This document shows, in pieces, positions 2,485 through 48,748 of a stretch of DNA of 64,000 bases; positions within the stretch are counted from its first letter, which is position 1, and each line of letters opens with the position of its first letter. The stretch lies in contig OZ253545.1 in assembly GCA_965262615.1 (NCBI GenBank), positions 544,001 through 608,000 of the forward strand, read 5' to 3'. This DNA is from Alphaproteobacteria bacterium (lineage in GTDB: Bacteria; Pseudomonadota; Alphaproteobacteria; GM7ARS4; G965262615). The position numbers and the translations under genes were made by a program. The notes under the pieces are model-generated. The model saw nothing but the letters and a program-made list of their open reading frames with translations, did not search any database and was not told the DNA's origin.

Positions 2485-4935
<2,451 letters not shown>

Positions 4936-20426: not shown

Positions 20427-21368
20427 ATGAAAAAAGAACAGGTGGATTTGTGTGTCATTGGTTCGGGTCCTGCGGGCTACAGTGCGGCGATTTATGGCGC
20501 GCGCGCAGGGCTCACAACGGTGGTGGCAACGGGGATGAGTCAGGGCGGGCAGCTCACCATCACCACCGATGTGGATAATTATCCGGGGTTTGCCGACACC
20601 ATTCAGGGGCCATGGCTGATGGAACAGATGGTGCAGCAAGTGACACGCATGGGGGTGCGGGTGCATCATGAGACCATTGTGGAGGTTGGGCTGCGATCTC
20701 GTCCTTTTGTTGTGCGGGGTGATGGCGGGCATTGTTATGAGGCTCGGGCGGTGATTATTGCCACGGGCGCACTGGCGCGCTGGTTGGGATTGCCTTCAGA
20801 AGAGATGTTTCAGGGATTTGGCGTGTCGGCGTGTGCCACCTGTGATGGATTTTTGTTCAAGGGAGAAGAACTGGCGGTGGTGGGCGGCGGCAACACCGCG
20901 GTGGAGGAGGCTTTGTATCTCACGAACCATGCCAGTAAGGTGACGCTCATTCATCGGCGCGATGCATTGCGCGCCGATCACACGCTCACGCAGCGATTGA
21001 TGAACCATCCCGCCATTGAGATTTTATGGAATCATGAGGTGGCGGAAGTGCTGGGAGAGACCGAACCCCACAAGAAAGTCACGGGATTGCGTTTGCAAAA
21101 CTGCCTTGACGGCTCTGAAAAGGAACTTGGCGTGGCGGGGCTTTTTGTCGCCATCGGACACGACCCCGCCACCGATTTATTCAAGGGGCAGATTGAACTG
21201 GATGATGACGGTATTATTCGTGTGGCACGCGGTGGCACCGCCACCAGTGTCGGAGGCGTTTTTGCGGCGGGGGATGTGTGTGACCGTCACTATCGTCAGG
21301 CAATCACGGCGGCAGGCATGGGATGCATGGCAGCACTAGACGCCTATCATTTTCTCAGCAGAGCGTGA
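20427..21368 (+). CDS. trxB: Thioredoxin reductase
   Basis: IGSGPAGYSAA, GGQLTITT, SACATCDG, VGGGNTAVEEA, FAAGDV. Confidence 0.96.
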   Translation: MKKEQVDLCVIGSGPAGYSAAIYGARAGLTTVVATGMSQGGQLTITTDVDNYPGFADTIQGPWLMEQMVQQVTRMGVRVHHETIVEVGLRSRPFVVRGDGGHCYEARAVIIATGALARWLGLPSEEMFQGFGVSACATCDGFLFKGEELAVVGGGNTAVEEALYLTNHASKVTLIHRRDALRADHTLTQRLMNHPAIEILWNHEVAEVLGETEPHKKVTGLRLQNCLDGSEKELGVAGLFVAIGHDPATDLFKGQIELDDDGIIRVARGGTATSVGGVFAAGDVCDRHYRQAITAAGMGCMAALDAYHFLSRA

Positions 21369-22000
21369 GATACTTGTTTTTTGAGCAATTCTTCTAACAA
21401 TTGCTCCAGAGGAATGATATTTCCGTCATCGGCTTCTTTTAGTGCTTGCACATATTCGTGCCGAAAATCGCTCTGTAAGAGATTGCCAACGGAATAGCCA
21501 TCTCTTACTGGAAAGTTAGCCCCCGCTTTCATGCTCATCAAAAAATAAGAAAGTGATCTTGCTGTTCTGCCATTGCCGTTCACAAATGGATGAATCCAAT
21601 TGAGCCGCCACAAAGCAAAACTAGCGATTTGGATATGGTCATGAGAATGCCATTTTTTGTTCAACTCCTCTACAAATTTTTCCATAAAAAAGGGGACTTC
21701 ATCGGCTTCAGGTGGAGTATAATTTTCAACCCATACTTGTGTTGTCCTATAATCGCCCGCATTGGGGATGAGAATATTCATGCAAAGTGCATGCAAATAG
21801 CAAACAGTAATTTCATTGATGAATAGTTGTGGTTCTTGCCACGCTTGCCGAGAGACCACCATATCAATCCAGTCGGAGACTCGTGCTAAGTTACCAAGGC
21901 GGATTAAGTGTTGATAAGGTTCTTGTTCGTCCGCGTTTGTCCGTCTGCGAATTGCCTGTTTTGGCAGTAAGTCCTCTTGATGTTCTTTCTTTTTATTCAT
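21347..22000 (-). CDS. Fic-domain protein (putative toxin)
   Basis: HPFVNGNGRTAR Fic signature, AGDYR..V...YTPP. AT-rich. Start taken at MNKKKEH (22000). Confidence 0.88.
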   Translation of the reverse strand: MNKKKEHQEDLLPKQAIRRRTNADEQEPYQHLIRLGNLARVSDWIDMVVSRQAWQEPQLFINEITVCYLHALCMNILIPNAGDYRTTQVWVENYTPPEADEVPFFMEKFVEELNKKWHSHDHIQIASFALWRLNWIHPFVNGNGRTARSLSYFLMSMKAGANFPVRDGYSVGNLLQSDFRHEYVQALKEADDGNIIPLEQLLEELLKKQVSHALLRK

Positions 22001-22010
22001 GTGGGATTTT

Positions 22011-22202
22011 TTATTTTTTCCCTTTAATAATTCTGTAGATGACGCGCATATCCTCCACGCTGACATCATCACCCACACTGCGCGCCATGCCGGTGGCGTG
22101 AGCAACAATACGCTCTTCGCGGTCTTTTTCCGTTGTCGGTATGCTTTTGACATACTTCACAAGCTCTTCTCGGGTCATATCTTTAATTTTCTTGTTCATC
22201 AT
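22011..22202 (-). CDS. Small helical protein, putative Fic antitoxin
   Basis: 63 aa, strong SD (AAGGAG) upstream, ends 10 bp before the Fic start. Confidence 0.6.
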   Translation of the reverse strand: MMNKKIKDMTREELVKYVKSIPTTEKDREERIVAHATGMARSVGDDVSVEDMRVIYRIIKGKK

Positions 22203-24969: not shown

Positions 24970-26340
24970 ATGACTGCGCGCTTTTTACTTTCAATTCGCC
25001 ATGTGTTTTTTTTGTTGATGCTCAGCGCGCTAATTCTGCCGTCATCGGGCTTGAGTTTTCAGGGACAAGAATTATTCACGGTGCGGGATCTCACCATTGA
25101 AAAACGCATTGGCGAGAAAGAGGAGGCGGCAAGCGTCAAACGGGCGCGCGTTTTGGCACTGCAAGAGGGACGCATTCGCGCCTATCGGCGATTGCTGGAG
25201 ACGCTCATTCCCGATGAAGAGGTGGATTCTCTGCTGATTTTGAACGGTGAGGACATTCAAATTTTATTGCGCGATGTGGAGATTAAACAAGAGGTTGCCA
25301 CGAAGGATTTTTATCGGGTGACCACTCATTGGCATTTTGAGCCCGAGCTGGTGGTGTCATTGCTCAAACAGAGTGACAAGCCTTATTTGAGTCGTGCGCC
25401 GTTTCATATGCTGCTTGTTCCCTTGCTGCGCGGCGGCGTGGATGTGATGGGACACACTTTGTGGAGCGAGGCATGGCGCAATCTCACACAAAAAAGAGGC
25501 ATTATTTCCTATGAGCTCTATGATGACAACCGCGCCCGTCTGCCCATCAGTTGGGATGAGCTGTTGGCGAGCGAATTGCCTCATTACAAGGGGGGCATTT
25601 TTGTGCCACTGGCGGAATTGTTTCTTGATGCAGACGGCGACACCGATGCCGCCGTTGTGAAAAGTTTGGTGATCAAACCCGATGGCAGCAGGGATTATAT
25701 TTTATCCGACAGTGTTCTCAATGTGTTGCGTCATGAGGGTGAGAGCGAGCAAGATTTTTATGAACGCAGTGCGGCGGTGCTCTATAAGCACATGGCAAAT
25801 CGTTGGAAGCGGGCGTATCGCATTGACCATGAGTCGCGCATCATTCCCGTCACGGCATCAGTGCGCTATGACGGACTCAAGGAGTGGCTGGCGTTGCGCA
25901 AGAATTTATCCCTCATTCCTGTGTTGGATGATTTTCAGGTGGAGAATGTCACCGCCAGCGGCGCGGTTGTCACATTCAATGTGGTGACGGCGTTGGATGA
26001 TTTGCGTTTGCACTTGCGAGGCTTGGGTCTGTCTTTGGGGCGCACCAATGACGGGTGGGTGATTGACCATGGCACACAGGAGCAAAAAAAGCGCACCGCT
26101 CAGTCGTATTCTTTTGAAAGCGAATTTTTGAATGAGGATGAGGCGGAGCGTCTGTATGAGGCGGCGCGTCAATTTCAGAATGAGGAGATTCCTCTGGCGA
26201 CAAAAGAGGATGCCGATGCCCAGCAACAACAAGCCGATGATGACCTCTGGTCGCGCCTGTTCAGCAGTGGTGTCAAGGAAGATGATTTCAAAAACGCGCC
26301 CAAGCCCGACCGTCTGCCGCCGTTCTTTTGGGATTTATGA
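24970..26340 (+). CDS. Exported protein, DUF2066-like
   Basis: Signal peptide, ELFTVRDLTI...AR..AL..G...A...L. Sits divergent from purM, as DUF2066 genes do in Alphaproteobacteria. Confidence 0.55.
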   Translation: MTARFLLSIRHVFFLLMLSALILPSSGLSFQGQELFTVRDLTIEKRIGEKEEAASVKRARVLALQEGRIRAYRRLLETLIPDEEVDSLLILNGEDIQILLRDVEIKQEVATKDFYRVTTHWHFEPELVVSLLKQSDKPYLSRAPFHMLLVPLLRGGVDVMGHTLWSEAWRNLTQKRGIISYELYDDNRARLPISWDELLASELPHYKGGIFVPLAELFLDADGDTDAAVVKSLVIKPDGSRDYILSDSVLNVLRHEGESEQDFYERSAAVLYKHMANRWKRAYRIDHESRIIPVTASVRYDGLKEWLALRKNLSLIPVLDDFQVENVTASGAVVTFNVVTALDDLRLHLRGLGLSLGRTNDGWVIDHGTQEQKKRTAQSYSFESEFLNEDEAERLYEAARQFQNEEIPLATKEDADAQQQQADDDLWSRLFSSGVKEDDFKNAPKPDRLPPFFWDL

Positions 26341-26573
26341 GCGCGCCATTGGAGCTTGATTTGCGCGCTGAGCGATGCCCTCTGACTTTTGTGCGGGTGC
26401 GCCTGTTGCTGGAATCCATGCCCCTCAATGCCGCCGCCACCCTGTTGCTGGCAACCGATGATGGCGACAGCATTCGCGAATCATTGGTGCGGGAAGGTCA
26501 CGCCATTGACATAGAGGAGAAAAAAGACGGGCATATCCGCCTTGTGTTTTGCAAAAAGGTGGATGAAGGGTGA
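26337..26573 (+). CDS. Sulfurtransferase TusA family protein
   Basis: LDLRAERCPLTFVRVRLLLE. Confidence 0.82.
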   Translation: MSAPLELDLRAERCPLTFVRVRLLLESMPLNAAATLLLATDDGDSIRESLVREGHAIDIEEKKDGHIRLVFCKKVDEG

Positions 26574-26658
26574 TGACACAAAATCTTGTTTTTTCTTGTT
26601 TTTGAGCGTATGGTGACGGTGCAAAAGTTGTCACAGTCTGATTTATGCGTAAGCATAA

Positions 26659-26760
26659 GTCGGGCTTCTTATTGAATACAAGACCCGACCCCGAATGCTT
26701 GCGTTCGGTGGGGGGAATAGATAGGAGTCAGCCACTGTGATGACTTTTGCAAAGCCCGAC
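26659..26760 (+). ncRNA. c4-antisense-like cloverleaf RNA, copy 1, with flanking target sites
   Basis: P1 GTCGGGCTT/AAGCCCGAC; P2 CTTATT-GAATACAAGACC-[hairpin]-GGGAATA-GATAGG; P3 AGTCA-GCCACTGTGA-TGACT; single-stranded TTTGC. Complementary sites GCAAAA..TCACAG lie upstream (26621-26637) and downstream (26777-26795, over the SD AGGAG). Upstream promoter-like TTGTTT-N17-TATGGT (26586-26614). Confidence 0.7.
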
Positions 26761-26802
26761 ATATGTTGGGTGTTTCGCAAAACTAAAGTCACAGGAGTTG
26801 TC

Positions 26803-26856
26803 ATGACACCTATCGCGTTTCAAAACACCACGCCATCACGACCCTCTCTTTCCTAA
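26803..26856 (+). pseudogene. 17-codon ORF MTPIAFQNTTPSRPSLS, possible truncated phage antirepressor start
   Basis: SD AGGAG overlaps the c4 target site. The MT.I.FQNTT start resembles BRO/P22-type antirepressor N-termini that follow c4 elements (recalled, not searched). Confidence 0.4.
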
Positions 26857-26865
26857 AGTGAATGA

Positions 26866-26979
26866 GTCGGGTTGCCTGCTGAATACAAGACCTAATAGCG
26901 AAATAGGGAAATAGGCAGGTGTTTCATCGCCTCGTTGCGAACGCCACTCGGTGAGGTTGAAATCTGGCGGCGACCCGAC
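26866..26979 (+). ncRNA. c4-antisense-like RNA, copy 2
   Basis: P1 GTCGGGTTGCC/GGCGACCCGAC; same TGAATACAAGACC...GGGAAATAG core closed by CCTGC/GCAGG (compensatory relative to copy 1); different P3. Followed by SD GGAGG and a 5-codon ORF MAQNP. Confidence 0.6.
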
Positions 26980-27018
26980 ATATCAAAAAATTGGAGGAAG
27001 TGTCAATGGCACAAAACC

Positions 27019-27047
27019 CTTGACTTCTGCACTCAATTGGACATATC
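27019..27047 (+). promoter_or_regulatory. Putative promoter of hicB-like gene 1
   Basis: CTTGAC-N17-CATATC, alphaproteobacterial-type. The spacer contains ACTCAATTGGA, also seen in the holin repeats. Confidence 0.5.
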
Positions 27048-27100
27048 TTCTTGGTATCGTGGTAAGTTTCCTGCTACGAAGTCACAAATTGGAGAGGGAC

Positions 27101-27487
27101 ATGACCGTTTCGGTTTCACAACAAACGAAGCAATCGCCACAAAATCATAAGATCAACCTGAATGCTTTGTGCATTGAGGAATGGGAGGATTCGTGGGCAG
27201 CCGTTGGGATAAAGCATTACATTGTTGCTCAAGGCGACAGTGCTGGTGAAGCTGTGAGCAATCTTGCGAAAATCTTAATAGCTCAGTATGCCTATGATTA
27301 TTTGAAAGGGAGGAAGCCCCTTGCTGACTTTTCTGAAGCCCCCAGTGACTATCAAAAAAGATTTGAAAATGCTTCTGAGGAATTCAAGCCCCCCATTCCA
27401 AAGGTGACCGTGAACGGAAGCTTGCAAGCATTGTCTGGAGATTTGGGTTTTAGTGTGTGCGATTGCAAAATTGAACGCAAAAGATAA
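27101..27487 (+). CDS. HicB-like protein (no obvious DNA-binding domain), copy 1
   Basis: WAAVGIKHYIVAQGDSAGEAVSNL resembles the HicB partial RNase-H fold (..QG.T..EA..NL). SD GGAGAGGG. Confidence 0.65.
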   Translation: MTVSVSQQTKQSPQNHKINLNALCIEEWEDSWAAVGIKHYIVAQGDSAGEAVSNLAKILIAQYAYDYLKGRKPLADFSEAPSDYQKRFENASEEFKPPIPKVTVNGSLQALSGDLGFSVCDCKIERKR

Positions 27488-29976: not shown

Positions 29977-31776
29977 ATGTCGTCATATAACACAGTTGAG
30001 GATGTTCTTCATGAAATTGAGGGGGAGAAGAAATTTAAGGGTTTAAAATATCCACAGCTGCTTTCTCTTGCGGCAATTCAGTATTTTGTTTTTAAGGACA
30101 AAGATACAGATAGGCTCAAAAAAGATTTTTTGACAGACGGTAAAAACGATGGCGGGGTTGATGCCATTGTTTCGTTGTCAGGTGTTTATGGGCAAGCAGG
30201 TGAGGGATTGGTCATTATCCAATCAAAGTATACAGACAACATCACAGCTGGTGAGATTGAAGGCGAGTGGCGGAAGATTATGGGGACGATACAAAAGATT
30301 AAAGAAGGGGATACAAAAAATGTAAAGGATGAAGTGTCATCAGTTCTTAGCATAGCTGTGAAGGCGAATGAAGAAATTGAAATAATCTTCATGACAAGTG
30401 CCTCCAGTGCTAACAAGTCTAGCATTGAAAGTAAAATCGCAGATTTGAATGACGAAGATGATGCCGTGCAGGCGAAGGCATATTTTGGCAACGATTTGTT
30501 GGAGCAGAAGGAGTTTGTGTCCGATCCAAATATTTGCGTTGATATGGGTAGCCTTGACTTGTGGAAAGGCACTGGTTCGAATCAATCATCTTTTTTGGAA
30601 CATGATTTTGATAATTTGAAAGGCAAGATTGTCAGTGTCAGTGCTCGGAGTTTGAAAAATCTTGCCGAAAAGCATATCAAGAAAGGGCTGCTGGAAGGCA
30701 ATTTGCGTTCTTACATCAAGGAAAAAAGGGTGGATGAGAGAATCGATTACACCATTGAAAATGAACCTGACGAGTTTTGGTTTCTCAATAATGGCATCAC
30801 CATTTTTACTGAAGGTGTGGAAATTGAGGATTATAAATTGAATCTTAAGAATTTTTCCATCGTCAATGGCGGTCAGACGACCTTTCGTTTGAAAGAGGTG
30901 TTTCATAAAAATGGAGACTTTCCAATTGTATGTAAGGTGATTACTTTTGAAAGTGATGATGATGATGAAAAAAATAAGATGAAATTAAAAATTGCTTCTG
31001 CGTCAAATACGCAGAAACGCATAAAGCCGCAAGATCAACACTCCAATGATAGGGAGCAGAGGGATTTGAAAGAATTGCTGGAAAAGCAAGATCCTCCTGT
31101 GTTTTACAAAATTAAAAGTGGCAATCTTTTCCAAGAAAAGATGAAAGGTAAGAGTGTCGAAAAATGGCAAAAAATAGATATTAAAAAAATGACACGAATT
31201 CTTTGTGCCACGAGATTGGCGAGACCTGATGAAGCTTTTGCTAGACCAGATGACATTTTTAGAATCAAAGATGATTTGTATGAAAGGATTTTTCACTCAG
31301 GCACGCGAGATATCCCTTTTATTGTTGATGCCGTTCGTTTGTGTTCTGTCTGGGAAAATTGGTCAAAAAAATGGCTCATCGACAATAAAGATCCAGATGT
31401 AAAAACGCTTGAAGAAGAAGCTGTTAAAAAGTCTTGTTGGCATACTTTGGCAGTGATACACCTTGCCATTAAAGAGATGCGAGGGGACTTAGACCGAAAA
31501 AAAATTAATGAAACCCATAAATGGGAAGACGAAATTGCTCGCGAGGTGAAGACAGATTCTTTCATTAAGTGTGAATATGAAGATGCGAGAGAAAAGTATG
31601 ATGAACTTTTTTATTTCATTAGCTCAAAAGTAGTCACTATTTTTTCTAGTGAAATAGGAAAAAAATTAAAAAACAAAGACGCGTGGAACGAGCTGAGTAA
31701 GTCATGCTTGAACGATTTGAGGGAGTTTAGTGGTTGGCGAGAATTAATCCAAGATTTATTTATCACGAAAAAGTGA
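29977..31776 (+). CDS. AIPR (abortive infection phage resistance) family protein
   Basis: N-terminal DGKNDGGVDAI..IQSKY; NLRSYI, FWFLNNGITI, IVNGGQTT, SNTQKRI. AT-rich. Confidence 0.85.
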   Translation: MSSYNTVEDVLHEIEGEKKFKGLKYPQLLSLAAIQYFVFKDKDTDRLKKDFLTDGKNDGGVDAIVSLSGVYGQAGEGLVIIQSKYTDNITAGEIEGEWRKIMGTIQKIKEGDTKNVKDEVSSVLSIAVKANEEIEIIFMTSASSANKSSIESKIADLNDEDDAVQAKAYFGNDLLEQKEFVSDPNICVDMGSLDLWKGTGSNQSSFLEHDFDNLKGKIVSVSARSLKNLAEKHIKKGLLEGNLRSYIKEKRVDERIDYTIENEPDEFWFLNNGITIFTEGVEIEDYKLNLKNFSIVNGGQTTFRLKEVFHKNGDFPIVCKVITFESDDDDEKNKMKLKIASASNTQKRIKPQDQHSNDREQRDLKELLEKQDPPVFYKIKSGNLFQEKMKGKSVEKWQKIDIKKMTRILCATRLARPDEAFARPDDIFRIKDDLYERIFHSGTRDIPFIVDAVRLCSVWENWSKKWLIDNKDPDVKTLEEEAVKKSCWHTLAVIHLAIKEMRGDLDRKKINETHKWEDEIAREVKTDSFIKCEYEDAREKYDELFYFISSKVVTIFSSEIGKKLKNKDAWNELSKSCLNDLREFSGWRELIQDLFITKK

Positions 31777-46464: not shown

Positions 46465-46818
46465 ATGAGTGGAAATCTTGAGTTGAATACAAAAGCTACG
46501 AGCGGCAAAATCAGTGTTGTCATCGTGAAAGACACGATGGGCTGTGTCGCGATTGGGCTGGAGCATTACATCGCCGCACAGGGTGATACCCCAAAGGATG
46601 CGATGCTTAATTTCGTCAAGACTCTTTATGCCGAGCTGACTTTTTGCTTTGAAAATGACTTGGGAGCTTTTGAGGGTATTGAGCCAGCTCCACAGGAGTA
46701 TTGGGACATGTATCATGCAGGGGCTAAAGATGAATTGGCTTCTGAAAGCAAGCAGGTCTCTCAAGATCAATTAAAGGTTTTTCAATTGCCGATGATTGAT
46801 TGCAGGTTGGCAGCTTGA
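46465..46818 (+). CDS. HicB-like protein, copy 2
   Basis: VAIGLEHYIAAQGDTPKDAMLNF; SD GGAGGT. Clearly homologous to 27101..27487 (HY...QGD...A..N; F....AP..Y). Confidence 0.68.
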   Translation: MSGNLELNTKATSGKISVVIVKDTMGCVAIGLEHYIAAQGDTPKDAMLNFVKTLYAELTFCFENDLGAFEGIEPAPQEYWDMYHAGAKDELASESKQVSQDQLKVFQLPMIDCRLAA

Positions 46819-47956: not shown

Positions 47957-48748
47957 ATGAGCTTGTTTTTTTCAGAAGAAGCCATCAAGCTCTATCAAGA
48001 TGATTGCATTGCTGTGCTTGAACAGATGGAACAAGACGGGGTGCAATGCGATATGATATTTGCCGACCCACCTTATAATTTGTCCAACGATGGCATGAGC
48101 TGTCATGGTGGCAAAAGAGTGAGTGTCAATAAGGGTGAGTGGGATAAGTCAAACGGCTTAATGGAAGATGGGATTTTCACGGCAAAATGGATAGATGCTT
48201 GTCGCCGTATCCTAAAAGATAATGGCACAATTTGGATTAGTGGCACTCTGCATAATATCTATGTTGTCGGCTGGACATTGCAGCAGCTCAAATTTCACAT
48301 TCTCAATGACATCAGCTGGTTCAAGCCGAACGCGCCGCCACACTTGGCGTGTCGTTATTTTGCTCACTCTCATGAAACATTGCTATGGGCAAAAAAGAGC
48401 AAAAAGGCAAAGCACTACTTTGATTACCAACTCATGAAGCAGTGGGATGCCTCGCAAGACATGATAAAAAATGAAAAGAAACAAATGCGAAGTGTCTGGG
48501 CAATTGGCACGACTCCCAAAGCCGAAAAGGAATTGGGCAAACACCCCACGCAAAAACCATCGGAACTTTTGAGACGAATCATCCTTTCATCCACGCAAGA
48601 AGGCGATACGGTTCTTGACCCTTTTTGTGGCAGTGGAACAACGGGAGTCATCGCCAAAAAATATCGCCGCCACTTCATCGGCATTGACACCAACCCCACC
48701 TACCTCAGCCTCGCCCAAAACCGCATCCAAAAGATAAAAGCCGTTTAA
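47957..48748 (+). CDS. Beta-class amino-DNA methyltransferase (DpnA-like, probably GATC m6A)
   Basis: IFADPPY (motif IV) precedes HPTQKP and VLDPFCGSGTT (motif I). LSNDG.SC..GK.VSVNKGEWD and KPNAPP.LACRYF.HS resemble DpnA-type enzymes. Confidence 0.88.
   Translation: MSLFFSEEAIKLYQDDCIAVLEQMEQDGVQCDMIFADPPYNLSNDGMSCHGGKRVSVNKGEWDKSNGLMEDGIFTAKWIDACRRILKDNGTIWISGTLHNIYVVGWTLQQLKFHILNDISWFKPNAPPHLACRYFAHSHETLLWAKKSKKAKHYFDYQLMKQWDASQDMIKNEKKQMRSVWAIGTTPKAEKELGKHPTQKPSELLRRIILSSTQEGDTVLDPFCGSGTTGVIAKKYRRHFIGIDTNPTYLSLAQNRIQKIKAV

Follow-up and report, generated by a model that had tools for sequence, protein, structure and literature searches.

The 64,000-nt stretch of DNA analyzed in this work (the window; positions 544,001 to 608,000 of contig OZ253545.1, assembly GCA_965262615.1, from an alphaproteobacterium of lineage GM7ARS4) carries two tandem structured RNA elements, copy 1 and copy 2. 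They lie in a non-coding gap of 527 bp (26574-27100) between the stop codon of a TusA-like open reading frame (ORF; stop at 26571-26573) and the next sizeable ORF (ATG at 27101). We propose, with a probability of roughly 70%, that both elements stem from a lineage-specific amplification of an sRNA-Xcc1-type RNA that acts by the principle of c4, the immunity RNA of phages P1 and P7, and that copy 1 forms a self-contained regulatory unit. The surrounding genome is a single contig of 1,542,258 bases with 51% G+C, and its 16S rRNA, judged from an alignment, is of alphaproteobacterial type. Both elements carry GTCGGG, TGAATACAAGACC, GG(G/A)AATAG, and CCCGACATAT; a 13-mer common to the two occurs exactly twice within the window, and the inner stems differ in a compensatory manner (CUUAU/AUAGG in copy 1 vs CCUGC/GCAGG in copy 2). 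These common motifs and compensatory stems had been described in a first-pass annotation of this DNA, and all of its coordinates and ORF lengths were found to be correct.

Copy 1 is an RNA of 102 nt (26659-26760, + strand), which scores 79.6 bits (E 7.7e-18) with R1, a covariance model built from the copies of this genome. Its parts are a closing stem P1, an inner stem P2, the invariant internal loop (UGAAUACAAGA / GGAAUAG), and a variable hairpin P3. The 3' hairpin P4 pairs 26726-30 with 26741-45 around a loop at 26731-40 and is followed by the joiner UUUUGCAAA; the fold has a z of -3.34. The unit to which it belongs reads, in order, promoter, upstream target pair, RNA, downstream target pair over AGGAG, and 17-codon ORF. 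The upstream target pair (GCAAAAGTTGTCACAGT, 26621-26637, +), the analogue of a1/b1 of phage P1, contains GCAAAAG, complementary to the 3' joiner of the RNA, and GTCACAGT, complementary to the loop of the 3' hairpin; the exact complement of the copy 1 RNA in this site is 9 nt long (ACTTTTGCA). The downstream target pair (26777-26797, +), the a2/b2 analogue, consists of GCAAAA (26777-82) and GTCACAGGAG (26788-97), the latter overlapping the AGGAG Shine-Dalgarno sequence (26793-97). The ATG at 26803 opens the 17-codon ORF (26803-26856, +; peptide MTPIAFQNTTPSRPSLS), which stops 9 nt ahead of copy 2. Duplexes of copy 1 with its own flanks had energies of -31.2 kcal/mol upstream (3' half of the RNA) and -22.0 kcal/mol downstream; each cognate flank ranked first of 19 against the non-cognate flanks of the same side, in agreement with the proposed complementarity to sites upstream and downstream over AGGAG. 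The predicted fold of the leader (26619-26812) reaches -74.9 kcal/mol (z -5.68), with the RNA loop and joiner paired to the ribosome-binding-site region. Copy 1 is fully accounted for by its own targets in cis. Ahead of the upstream pair lies a putative sigma-70-type promoter (26586-26614, +; -35 TTGTTT at 26586-26591, 17-nt spacer, -10 TATGGT at 26609-26614), suggested by the same arrangement in the paralogous modules at G000:1392653 and G000:538984 of this genome, the -10 sequence at 538984 being TATAGT. A small hairpin with a GNRA-type loop (TTATGC-GTAA-GCATAA, 26643-26658, +) abuts the 5' end of the RNA; the 538984 paralogue has CTGC-GCGA-GCAG at this position, a compensatory replacement, and the hairpin may serve as a processing signal.

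The copies of the element in this genome were found by a motif scan and then with R1. The family comprises 23 copies in 1.54 Mb, 22 of which score 50-81 bits and one of which is degenerate (27.6 bits), and many of them stand in tandem; a search for further copies had been suggested in the first-pass annotation. The structure (stem P1, stem P2, the base of the variable P3, and the 3' hairpin P4) was written on an unfitted MAFFT alignment of the 23 copies. In this alignment 89.9% of the cells pair, and both partners change in 14 of the 21 pairs. These paralogues gave a covariation score of 0.379 vs 0.239 in shuffles (none of 500 shuffles was as high), and control structures slid by one to three columns gave at most 0.135. 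Stem P2 has compensatory changes at all five pairs with 96% of its cells paired, and stem P1 is likewise 96% paired. This covariation, together with R1 scores of 79.6 and 60.0 bits for copies 1 and 2, bears out the earlier claim that the RNA folds are intact. G-U pairs are frequent (10 of 23 at pair 2-147), as suits an RNA transcribed from this strand better than a palindrome in the DNA. The copies sit in small accessory islets between housekeeping genes, three times beside Panacea-domain antitoxin genes, and none of the 23 lies inside a recognizable prophage. In one islet (L011:2168-2910; G000:683168-683910) two RNA copies and a 146-aa lipobox gene stand between a 16S rRNA gene (L011:120-1619) and a tRNA gene (3755-3828), and this cassette seems to be lodged within the spacer of the rRNA operon.

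We examined the match between each RNA and its flanks by computing the duplex energy of the 3' part (P4 and joiner) of each copy with 60-nt upstream and downstream flanks taken from all copies. The mean energy for upstream cognate flanks was -22.2 kcal/mol, compared with -15.3 for non-cognate flanks and -15.3 for reversed flanks (Wilcoxon p 0.0009, 23 copies). The cognate flank ranked first for 10 of the 23 copies upstream and for 5 of 23 downstream. The match also co-varies among paralogues: the loops differ between the units at 1464243, 1464517, and 1464792, and the upstream sites differ in step with them. These three units, each with its own loop and matching upstream site, are spaced 274-275 nt apart (L019:2243-3385; G000:1464243-1465385). 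In units 1 and 2 a 16-codon ORF with a GTG start (MKTQPWW...) repeats by eye the start of a 147-aa ORF behind unit 3, and the array looks like a tandem duplication of the leader and the 5' end of the gene. In other taxa (49 dereplicated RNAs out of the 85 R1 matches described below, from named genomes of many taxa) the cognate flank came first in 24 of 49 cases upstream and in 11 of 49 downstream. Private complementarity to ribosome-binding sites is sensible only at the RNA level, which argues for a function of the RNA and against a DNA-level repeat of the REP (repetitive extragenic palindromic) or MITE-like (miniature inverted-repeat transposable element) kind without RNA function. The high copy number, dispersal, frequent tandem arrangement, and location in intergenic islets would suit such a repeat, but every copy with a downstream ORF is oriented towards that ORF, and the G-U pairs would turn into A-C mismatches if the opposite strand were read, so that we regard this explanation as close to negligible. 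A ligand- or protein-sensing leader, with the AAUACAA / GGRAAUAG loop as the binding pocket and the pairing at the ribosome-binding site as the expression platform, also deserves consideration: the AAUACAA loop is invariant in 23 of 23 copies and nearly so across phyla, a conservation far beyond the need of an antisense scaffold. However, a variable, privately matched address is not a feature of riboswitches, the genes behind the RNAs are functionally unrelated between copies, and processing or the binding of a chaperone could account equally well for the conserved loop; we consider a sensing leader very improbable.

Next, we compared the copy 1 unit with c4 (Rfam C4, RF01695; c4-a1b1, RF03163; clan CL00128). 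In the annotated phage P1 record, promoter P1c4 (48195-48223) is followed by a1 (48255-61), b1 (48269-76), c4 (48343-48419), a2 (48423-29), b2 (48452-59), and icd from 48470. According to the sequence and the Rfam alignment, the 3' joiner of c4 is the partner of the a sites in phage P1, the second-hairpin loop is that of the b sites, and the icd ribosome-binding site falls under b2. The copy 1 unit has its parts in an identical order, and both RNAs have an outer stem enclosing two hairpins, with the second-hairpin loop directed to the b sites and the 3' joiner to the a sites. Because the part order and the division of labor are the same, copy 1 can be said, judging from its sequence, to work like c4 in layout while standing outside the Rfam C4 family. 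The likeness to the c4 layout was therefore correctly recognized in the first-pass annotation, and a check with covariance models for membership in C4, c4-a1b1, or any other family of the C4 clan gave no matches. With the Rfam C4 model (threshold 45 bits) there were no hits in the window at the gathering score, none in 26450-27150 at E<=10, and none genome-wide at E<=1; c4 of phage P1, used as a positive control, scored 68.8 bits. The c4-a1b1 model (threshold 46.7 bits), with which phage P1 scores 51 bits, matched nothing in 26450-27150 at E<=10, and its functional analogue here is the upstream complementary pair at 26621-26637. Neither isrK nor any C4-clan model matched in the window at E<=10. 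The phage P1 a1/b1 region matches isrK at 35.1 bits, whereas the copy 1 unit has no isrK-like terminator hairpin. Conversely, R1 does not score phage P1 c4; its best score there, 7.9 bits, falls elsewhere in that stretch.

Further differences from c4 concern the AAUACAA loop, which c4 does not have, the position of the upstream sites (22-38 nt before the RNA here, 67-88 nt in phage P1), and the cargo. Phage P1 carries icd and ant, whereas a 17-codon ORF stands here and envelope genes in the paralogues; the immI-type arrangement of icd and antirepressor within a phage or prophage is absent, and the neighbors are housekeeping genes. The P4 CI RNA acts via transcription termination. Both P4 CI (seqA/seqC) and IsrK of Gifsy-1 are RNA-based immunity systems and resemble copy 1 in that a structured RNA, processed in their case, pairs with repeated sites of its own operon, as presented in the available part of PMC3632133. 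Release of c4 from its precursor by RNase P is attributed to Hartmann et al. 1995 in the accessible text of PMC5320573. The portion of the same report that deals with the C4-derived "Group 1" small RNAs (sRNAs) of Acinetobacter baumannii describes many c4-type RNAs per chromosome with a variable address region, as found here, which are processed from longer transcripts and are proposed to act on phage or host transcripts. Unlike the family described here, the Group 1 sRNAs match the Rfam C4 motif, and cognate pairs flanking them in cis or envelope-gene cargo are not described in that portion (PMC5320573). On the available text, a c4-type family in many copies, with the same pair of speculative roles, thus has a published precedent in A. 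baumannii (PMC5320573).

The Rfam family closest to the element is sRNA-Xcc1 (RF02221). It was reportedly first described in an integron cassette of Xanthomonas campestris by Chen and coworkers in 2011. Copy 1 aligned with this model over its full length (model positions 1-87) at 30.9 bits and E 0.0024, below the gathering score of 53, and 7 of the 23 copies (copy 1 and six of the other 21) gave matches of 30.6-41.2 bits, all sub-threshold. According to the Rfam alignments, the two share a 9-bp closing stem, a first hairpin with an AAUACAA...GGGGAAUA internal loop, a second hairpin, and a U-rich joiner; P3 is long and variable in the family of this genome, in which it differs from sRNA-Xcc1. 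The AAUACAA / GGGGAAUA loop is thus common to both, and a profile link leads to accepted members of sRNA-Xcc1. Among 37 genomes of the same class, R1 found 1-4 copies in four, and it found none in three genomes of the same order. In another alphaproteobacterium (G017), three R1 copies exceed the Rfam sRNA-Xcc1 threshold (55.8-57.9 bits vs 53). They have the same a/b layout on both sides and an upstream hairpin with a U-run that resembles the isrK-like element of phage P1; the RNAs form three units of roughly 1 kb, with a 104-aa ORF and a weakly Rha-like ORF behind them. Since R1, built from this genome only, retrieves copies that pass the Rfam threshold and show the same a/b layout, this family is most aptly placed within sRNA-Xcc1 as a divergent branch, and the c4 principle seems to operate in sRNA-Xcc1 itself. 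Elsewhere, R1 gave 85 matches at 80 loci of other genomes, Xanthomonas species included. In the alignment of the 85 matches 94.8% of the cells pair and covariation is 0.590 vs 0.186, although this alignment was fitted to the model and so leans towards it.

Available parts of the literature place sRNA-Xcc1 upstream of symE in Xanthomonas integron cassettes (10.1101/2025.06.18.660453) and upstream of an ORF6N gene in APSE phages. In Xylella, C4, isrK, and sRNA-Xcc1 annotations are adjacent, and a genomic island contains five tandem sRNA-Xcc1 copies (PMC12189769, Table 4). In the sources available to us sRNA-Xcc1 is portrayed as a trans-acting sRNA without an established target, and among them no paper was found that states a cis a/b layout for it or its amplification in a marine symbiont. 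Tandem arrays are common in small alphaproteobacterial genomes: four copies stand in a Parvibaculaceae metagenome-assembled genome (MAG) with a 1.84-Mb chromosome and three in a Rickettsiales MAG (L081:381-950, L101:3-778). The RNA is also often present several times per genome in MAGs of Candidatus Marinacidobacterales (Acidobacteriota), Candidatus Poriferihabitaceae, and Longimicrobiales (L033, L051, L057, L058, L061, L065, L078, L079, L087, L106), where by eye an ORF with a lipobox or signal peptide is frequently next to it, so that envelope cargo crosses phyla. A metagenome scan for GTCGGGCTTC-N5-GAATACAA-N-ACC gave no loci in a set that may omit records near this genome.

The genes behind the RNAs were then examined. 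Downstream of complete copies in this genome lie the genes of three paralogous lipobox proteins (146-172 aa), and one of these proteins matches the phage family phrog_6823 (E 1.6e-35). The other cargo consists of a 125-aa lipobox protein, a DUF6804 membrane protein, a 58-aa YHYH protein, and several very short ORFs. For the other taxa we collected 33 downstream ORFs of at least 40 aa and scanned 30 of them with Pfam, leaving aside three (L072:421-597, L104:828-950, L081:697-885) that looked spurious or overlapped another RNA copy. Above the cut-off there were SymE_toxin (1), Phage_pRha (1), ORF6N (1), HTH_3 (3), Phage_CI_repr (1), OMP_b-brl (1), and Rap1a (1). A second Phage_pRha fell below the cut-off, a collagen match lay at the cut-off, and 15 of the 30 ORFs had no family. 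The RNA that precedes the SymE gene, at L034, scores 41.9 bits. By eye, several of the downstream ORFs from marine MAGs start with a signal peptide or lipobox. We concluded that phage or toxin cargo and envelope cargo both occur across the family.

Copy 2 is a long-type RNA of 114 nt (26866-26979, +; 60.0 bits and E 1.8e-12 with R1). It has the P1, P2, loop, and P3 scaffold of copy 1, with a larger and different 3' domain. The first-pass annotation had described a complete target-RNA-target switch, and this part of it holds for copy 1 only: copy 2 has no cognate complement in its flanks, the cognate duplex ranking 16th of 23 upstream and 22nd of 23 downstream, and within 300 nt its only complements are chance-level 7-mers. 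It thus has the c4 fold without the operon sites that copy 1 possesses. Copy 2 matched nothing in Rfam even at E<=10. Compared with the paralogue at G000:538984 it shows three differences in the first 56 nt; the 3' domains differ, each folding as a long hairpin, and a G-C to A-U change preserves the pairing of the extended closing stem. Copy 2 is therefore a variant with a conserved scaffold and a swapped 3' domain, without a target in this genome. The best genomic complement of its 3' domain, a 16-mer in a coding region, was rejected as a candidate: a match of this length turned up in one of 60 shuffles, and with 23 RNAs to consider it is not significant. By eye that coding region may encode a BamA-type protein.

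An RNA-only immunity cassette had been proposed in the first-pass annotation. In such a cassette, c4-type RNAs of differing specificity would silence in trans the antirepressor or lytic-gene mRNAs of incoming phages or satellites, and copy 2 is the part of the locus that suits it best: intact at 60 bits, conserved in scaffold relative to its paralogue, and swapped in its 3' domain, yet without a target in flanks or genome. In other taxa the family precedes Rha, ORF6N, Cro/CI-type, and SymE genes, and for the multi-copy C4-derived sRNAs of Acinetobacter baumannii the idea is in print, as far as the available text of PMC5320573 goes. However, the address of copy 1 is fully matched by its own two flanking sites and explained in cis, and other copies precede lipoprotein, membrane, and secreted-protein genes, with private addresses that match their own envelope-gene leaders. 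A "distant" blastn comparison of 26560-27030 with 50,697 phage records found no similar DNA, and no phage target can be named. A stand-alone anti-phage cassette is therefore unlikely, and we reckon with it in perhaps one case in ten. Only the intact orphan copy 2 leaves room for a role in trans, which it may have; no test showed one.

The whole unit of copy 1, ORF, and copy 2 is paralogous to a module at 1392653-1392359, and the module order is promoter, a1/b1, small hairpin, RNA 1, a2/b2, Shine-Dalgarno sequence, ORF, and RNA 2. The paralogous module contains a 16-codon ORF (MTLITYQEASETPPHR) that stops 8 nt ahead of its second RNA. Both short ORFs begin with MT(P/L)I(A/T)(F/Y)Q, have 16-17 codons, and stop 8-9 nt before a long-type RNA; no longer gene with this start was found in the genome, only the two short ORFs. 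The same ORF length and spacing to RNA 2 in the paralogous module argue, as far as sequence comparison can, that the 17-codon ORF is a retained feature and not the product of simple decay, and the earlier view of the ORFs as decayed antirepressor genes was not sustained. The same evidence bears on the possibility that the locus is a decaying relic of a phage immI-type operon, with the antirepressors lost and the RNAs and gene stubs drifting neutrally. The tiny ORFs behind both RNAs, the phage-type canonical cargo elsewhere, and the match of the lipoprotein cargo family of three other copies to phrog_6823, which makes a phage origin of the cassettes plausible, all point that way; in addition, the contig of one sequencing run departs from the window right after the TusA-like gene, so that the unit may be accessory. 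Against decay speak the intact folds with covariation maintained between paralogues, the recurrence, in an independent paralogous module, of a short ORF of the same length that again ends 8-9 nt ahead of RNA 2, and the four target half-sites of copy 1, which all still match; a relic appears decidedly improbable. A type I toxin-antitoxin system, with the 17-codon ORF as a small toxin and the copy 1 RNA as antitoxin, would find some support in the conserved ORF start of the two modules and in the sRNA-Xcc1-type RNAs that precede a SymE toxin gene (L034, 41.9 bits; compare the available part of 10.1101/2025.06.18.660453). The peptide MTPIAFQNTTPSRPSLS is by eye polar and proline-rich without a hydrophobic helix, and it has no similarity to SymE; we consider this explanation extremely unlikely.

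Two loci related to these modules deserve mention. The long-type copy at L018:4859-4971 (-) (G000:1392359-1392471) holds UGUUGUAUU in the loop of its 3' hairpin. This sequence complements the conserved AAUACAAC loop of the copy 134 nt upstream, and its own loop over 8 nt; the two loops might be in contact, or this copy might regulate other members of the family. At L010:1984-2200 (G000:538984-539200), 5 kb before the window, a promoter and a1/b1-like leader of the copy 1 type are joined directly to an RNA of the copy 2 type, which looks like the product of recombination between tandem RNAs. The RNA is followed by an ORF fragment ending in ...GGRAIGWRTSVIQRWIDSR, which presumably resembles the C-terminus of AlpA-type regulators. 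Contigs from four DNA sequencing runs were tried as a strain comparison and were unusable, the paralogues cross-mapping: apparent variants at 26897 and 26909 are differences of the 538984 paralogue, and contig joints from 26657/8 to 26865/6 reproduce its joined form, with a loose end that matches its leader.

If the c4 principle applies, the promoter of the copy 1 unit would start a transcript comprising the first target pair, the folded RNA, the second target pair over the ribosome-binding site, and the short ORF. The loop of the 3' hairpin and the single-stranded joiner would form a private "address", which would pair with the downstream sites, hide the Shine-Dalgarno sequence, and hold down translation of the ORF. 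Pairing might take place in cis while the leader is still intact, or in trans after excision of the stable RNA; by analogy with c4, RNase P or RNase E may carry out the processing. The upstream sites would compete for the address, as a decoy or as a folding partner. Transcription from the proposed promoter and actual repression are steps that we infer. More speculatively, translation of the short ORF might influence the folding of RNA 2, because the stop codon lies 8-9 nt before RNA 2 in both modules.

A bolder extension can be formulated. A phage immunity RNA would have been domesticated into about 20 mutually orthogonal, "bar-coded" translational governors on envelope and secreted genes of a reduced marine symbiont, a reuse recurring in Acidobacteriota, Gemmatimonadota, and Alpha- and Gammaproteobacteria (marine and sponge-associated, with lipobox and outer-membrane cargo). 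The unit in the window would then be a two-RNA relay, in which RNA 1 gates translation of the 17-codon ORF, this translation determines whether RNA 2 folds, and RNA 2 acts in trans on phage or on family members. We regard this extension as unlikely.

Several points weigh against an amplified sRNA-Xcc1-type RNA acting by the c4 principle. At gathering thresholds no Rfam family recognizes either copy in the window, and copy 2 did not match RF02221. The covariation score of 0.379 comes from 23 paralogues related by descent, so that the shuffle statistics overstate independence. The downstream cognate signal over the 23 copies was not significant (-17.5 vs -16.1 kcal/mol, p 0.14), because at least seven copies are orphans. 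Nothing in c4 corresponds to the invariant AAUACAA / GGRAAUAG internal loop, nor does a simple antisense scaffold account for it. The ORF under copy 1 has just 17 codons and no known function. The promoter at 26586-26614 is weak by consensus: it agrees with the consensus at 8 of 12 positions, and a consensus promoter scan did not list it, so that the description of the promoter as intact agrees with the arrangement kept in the paralogues and not with the scan.

Taken as we propose, the results would attach a phage-type immunity device to ordinary envelope-protein genes and see it amplified in a very small genome. In the available literature sRNA-Xcc1 is a widespread Rfam family without an established target or mode of action; since the match between RNA and flank co-varies in 23 paralogues and in 49 RNAs from many taxa, the c4 mechanism is now a concrete and testable proposal for it, with a likely target for each copy. 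The private addresses suggest a simple modular route by which many genes could be placed under separate private feedback loops. Twice in the genome, a short ORF that RNA 1 would gate stands ahead of an orphan second RNA.

The neighborhood of the RNA pair consists of purM, purN, panE, the TusA-like gene, an aldo-keto reductase gene, and pntAB, with single Fic and AIPR genes, and the first-pass annotation was right that locally there is no phage. The Fic-domain gene (21347-22150, -) stands alone among housekeeping genes close to the RNAs. An AIPR / Abi-alpha-like abortive-infection gene (29977-31773, +; Pfam AIPR 115 bits, phrog_1841 E 1.5e-45) is likewise alone among housekeeping genes. A 456-aa ORF (24970-26337, +) immediately 5' of the TusA-like gene had no match in Pfam, PHROGs, or NCBIfam, and neither did the 128-aa ORF downstream of the RNAs (27101-27484, +). 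Behind copy 2, GGAGG is followed by a 5-codon ORF, MAQNP (26993-27023, +; ORF 27006-27023). It has no counterpart downstream of the other long-type copies in this genome and is probably not meaningful. The 128-aa gene may be transcribed separately from the RNA unit, as suggested by a promoter-like site ahead of its ATG at 27101 (TTGACT, 18 nt, TATCTT; 27020-27049, +; 9 of 12 consensus positions). By eye, this 128-aa ORF has a ...HYI(V/A)AQGD(S/T)... stretch in common with an ORF at about 46470-46700 (+).

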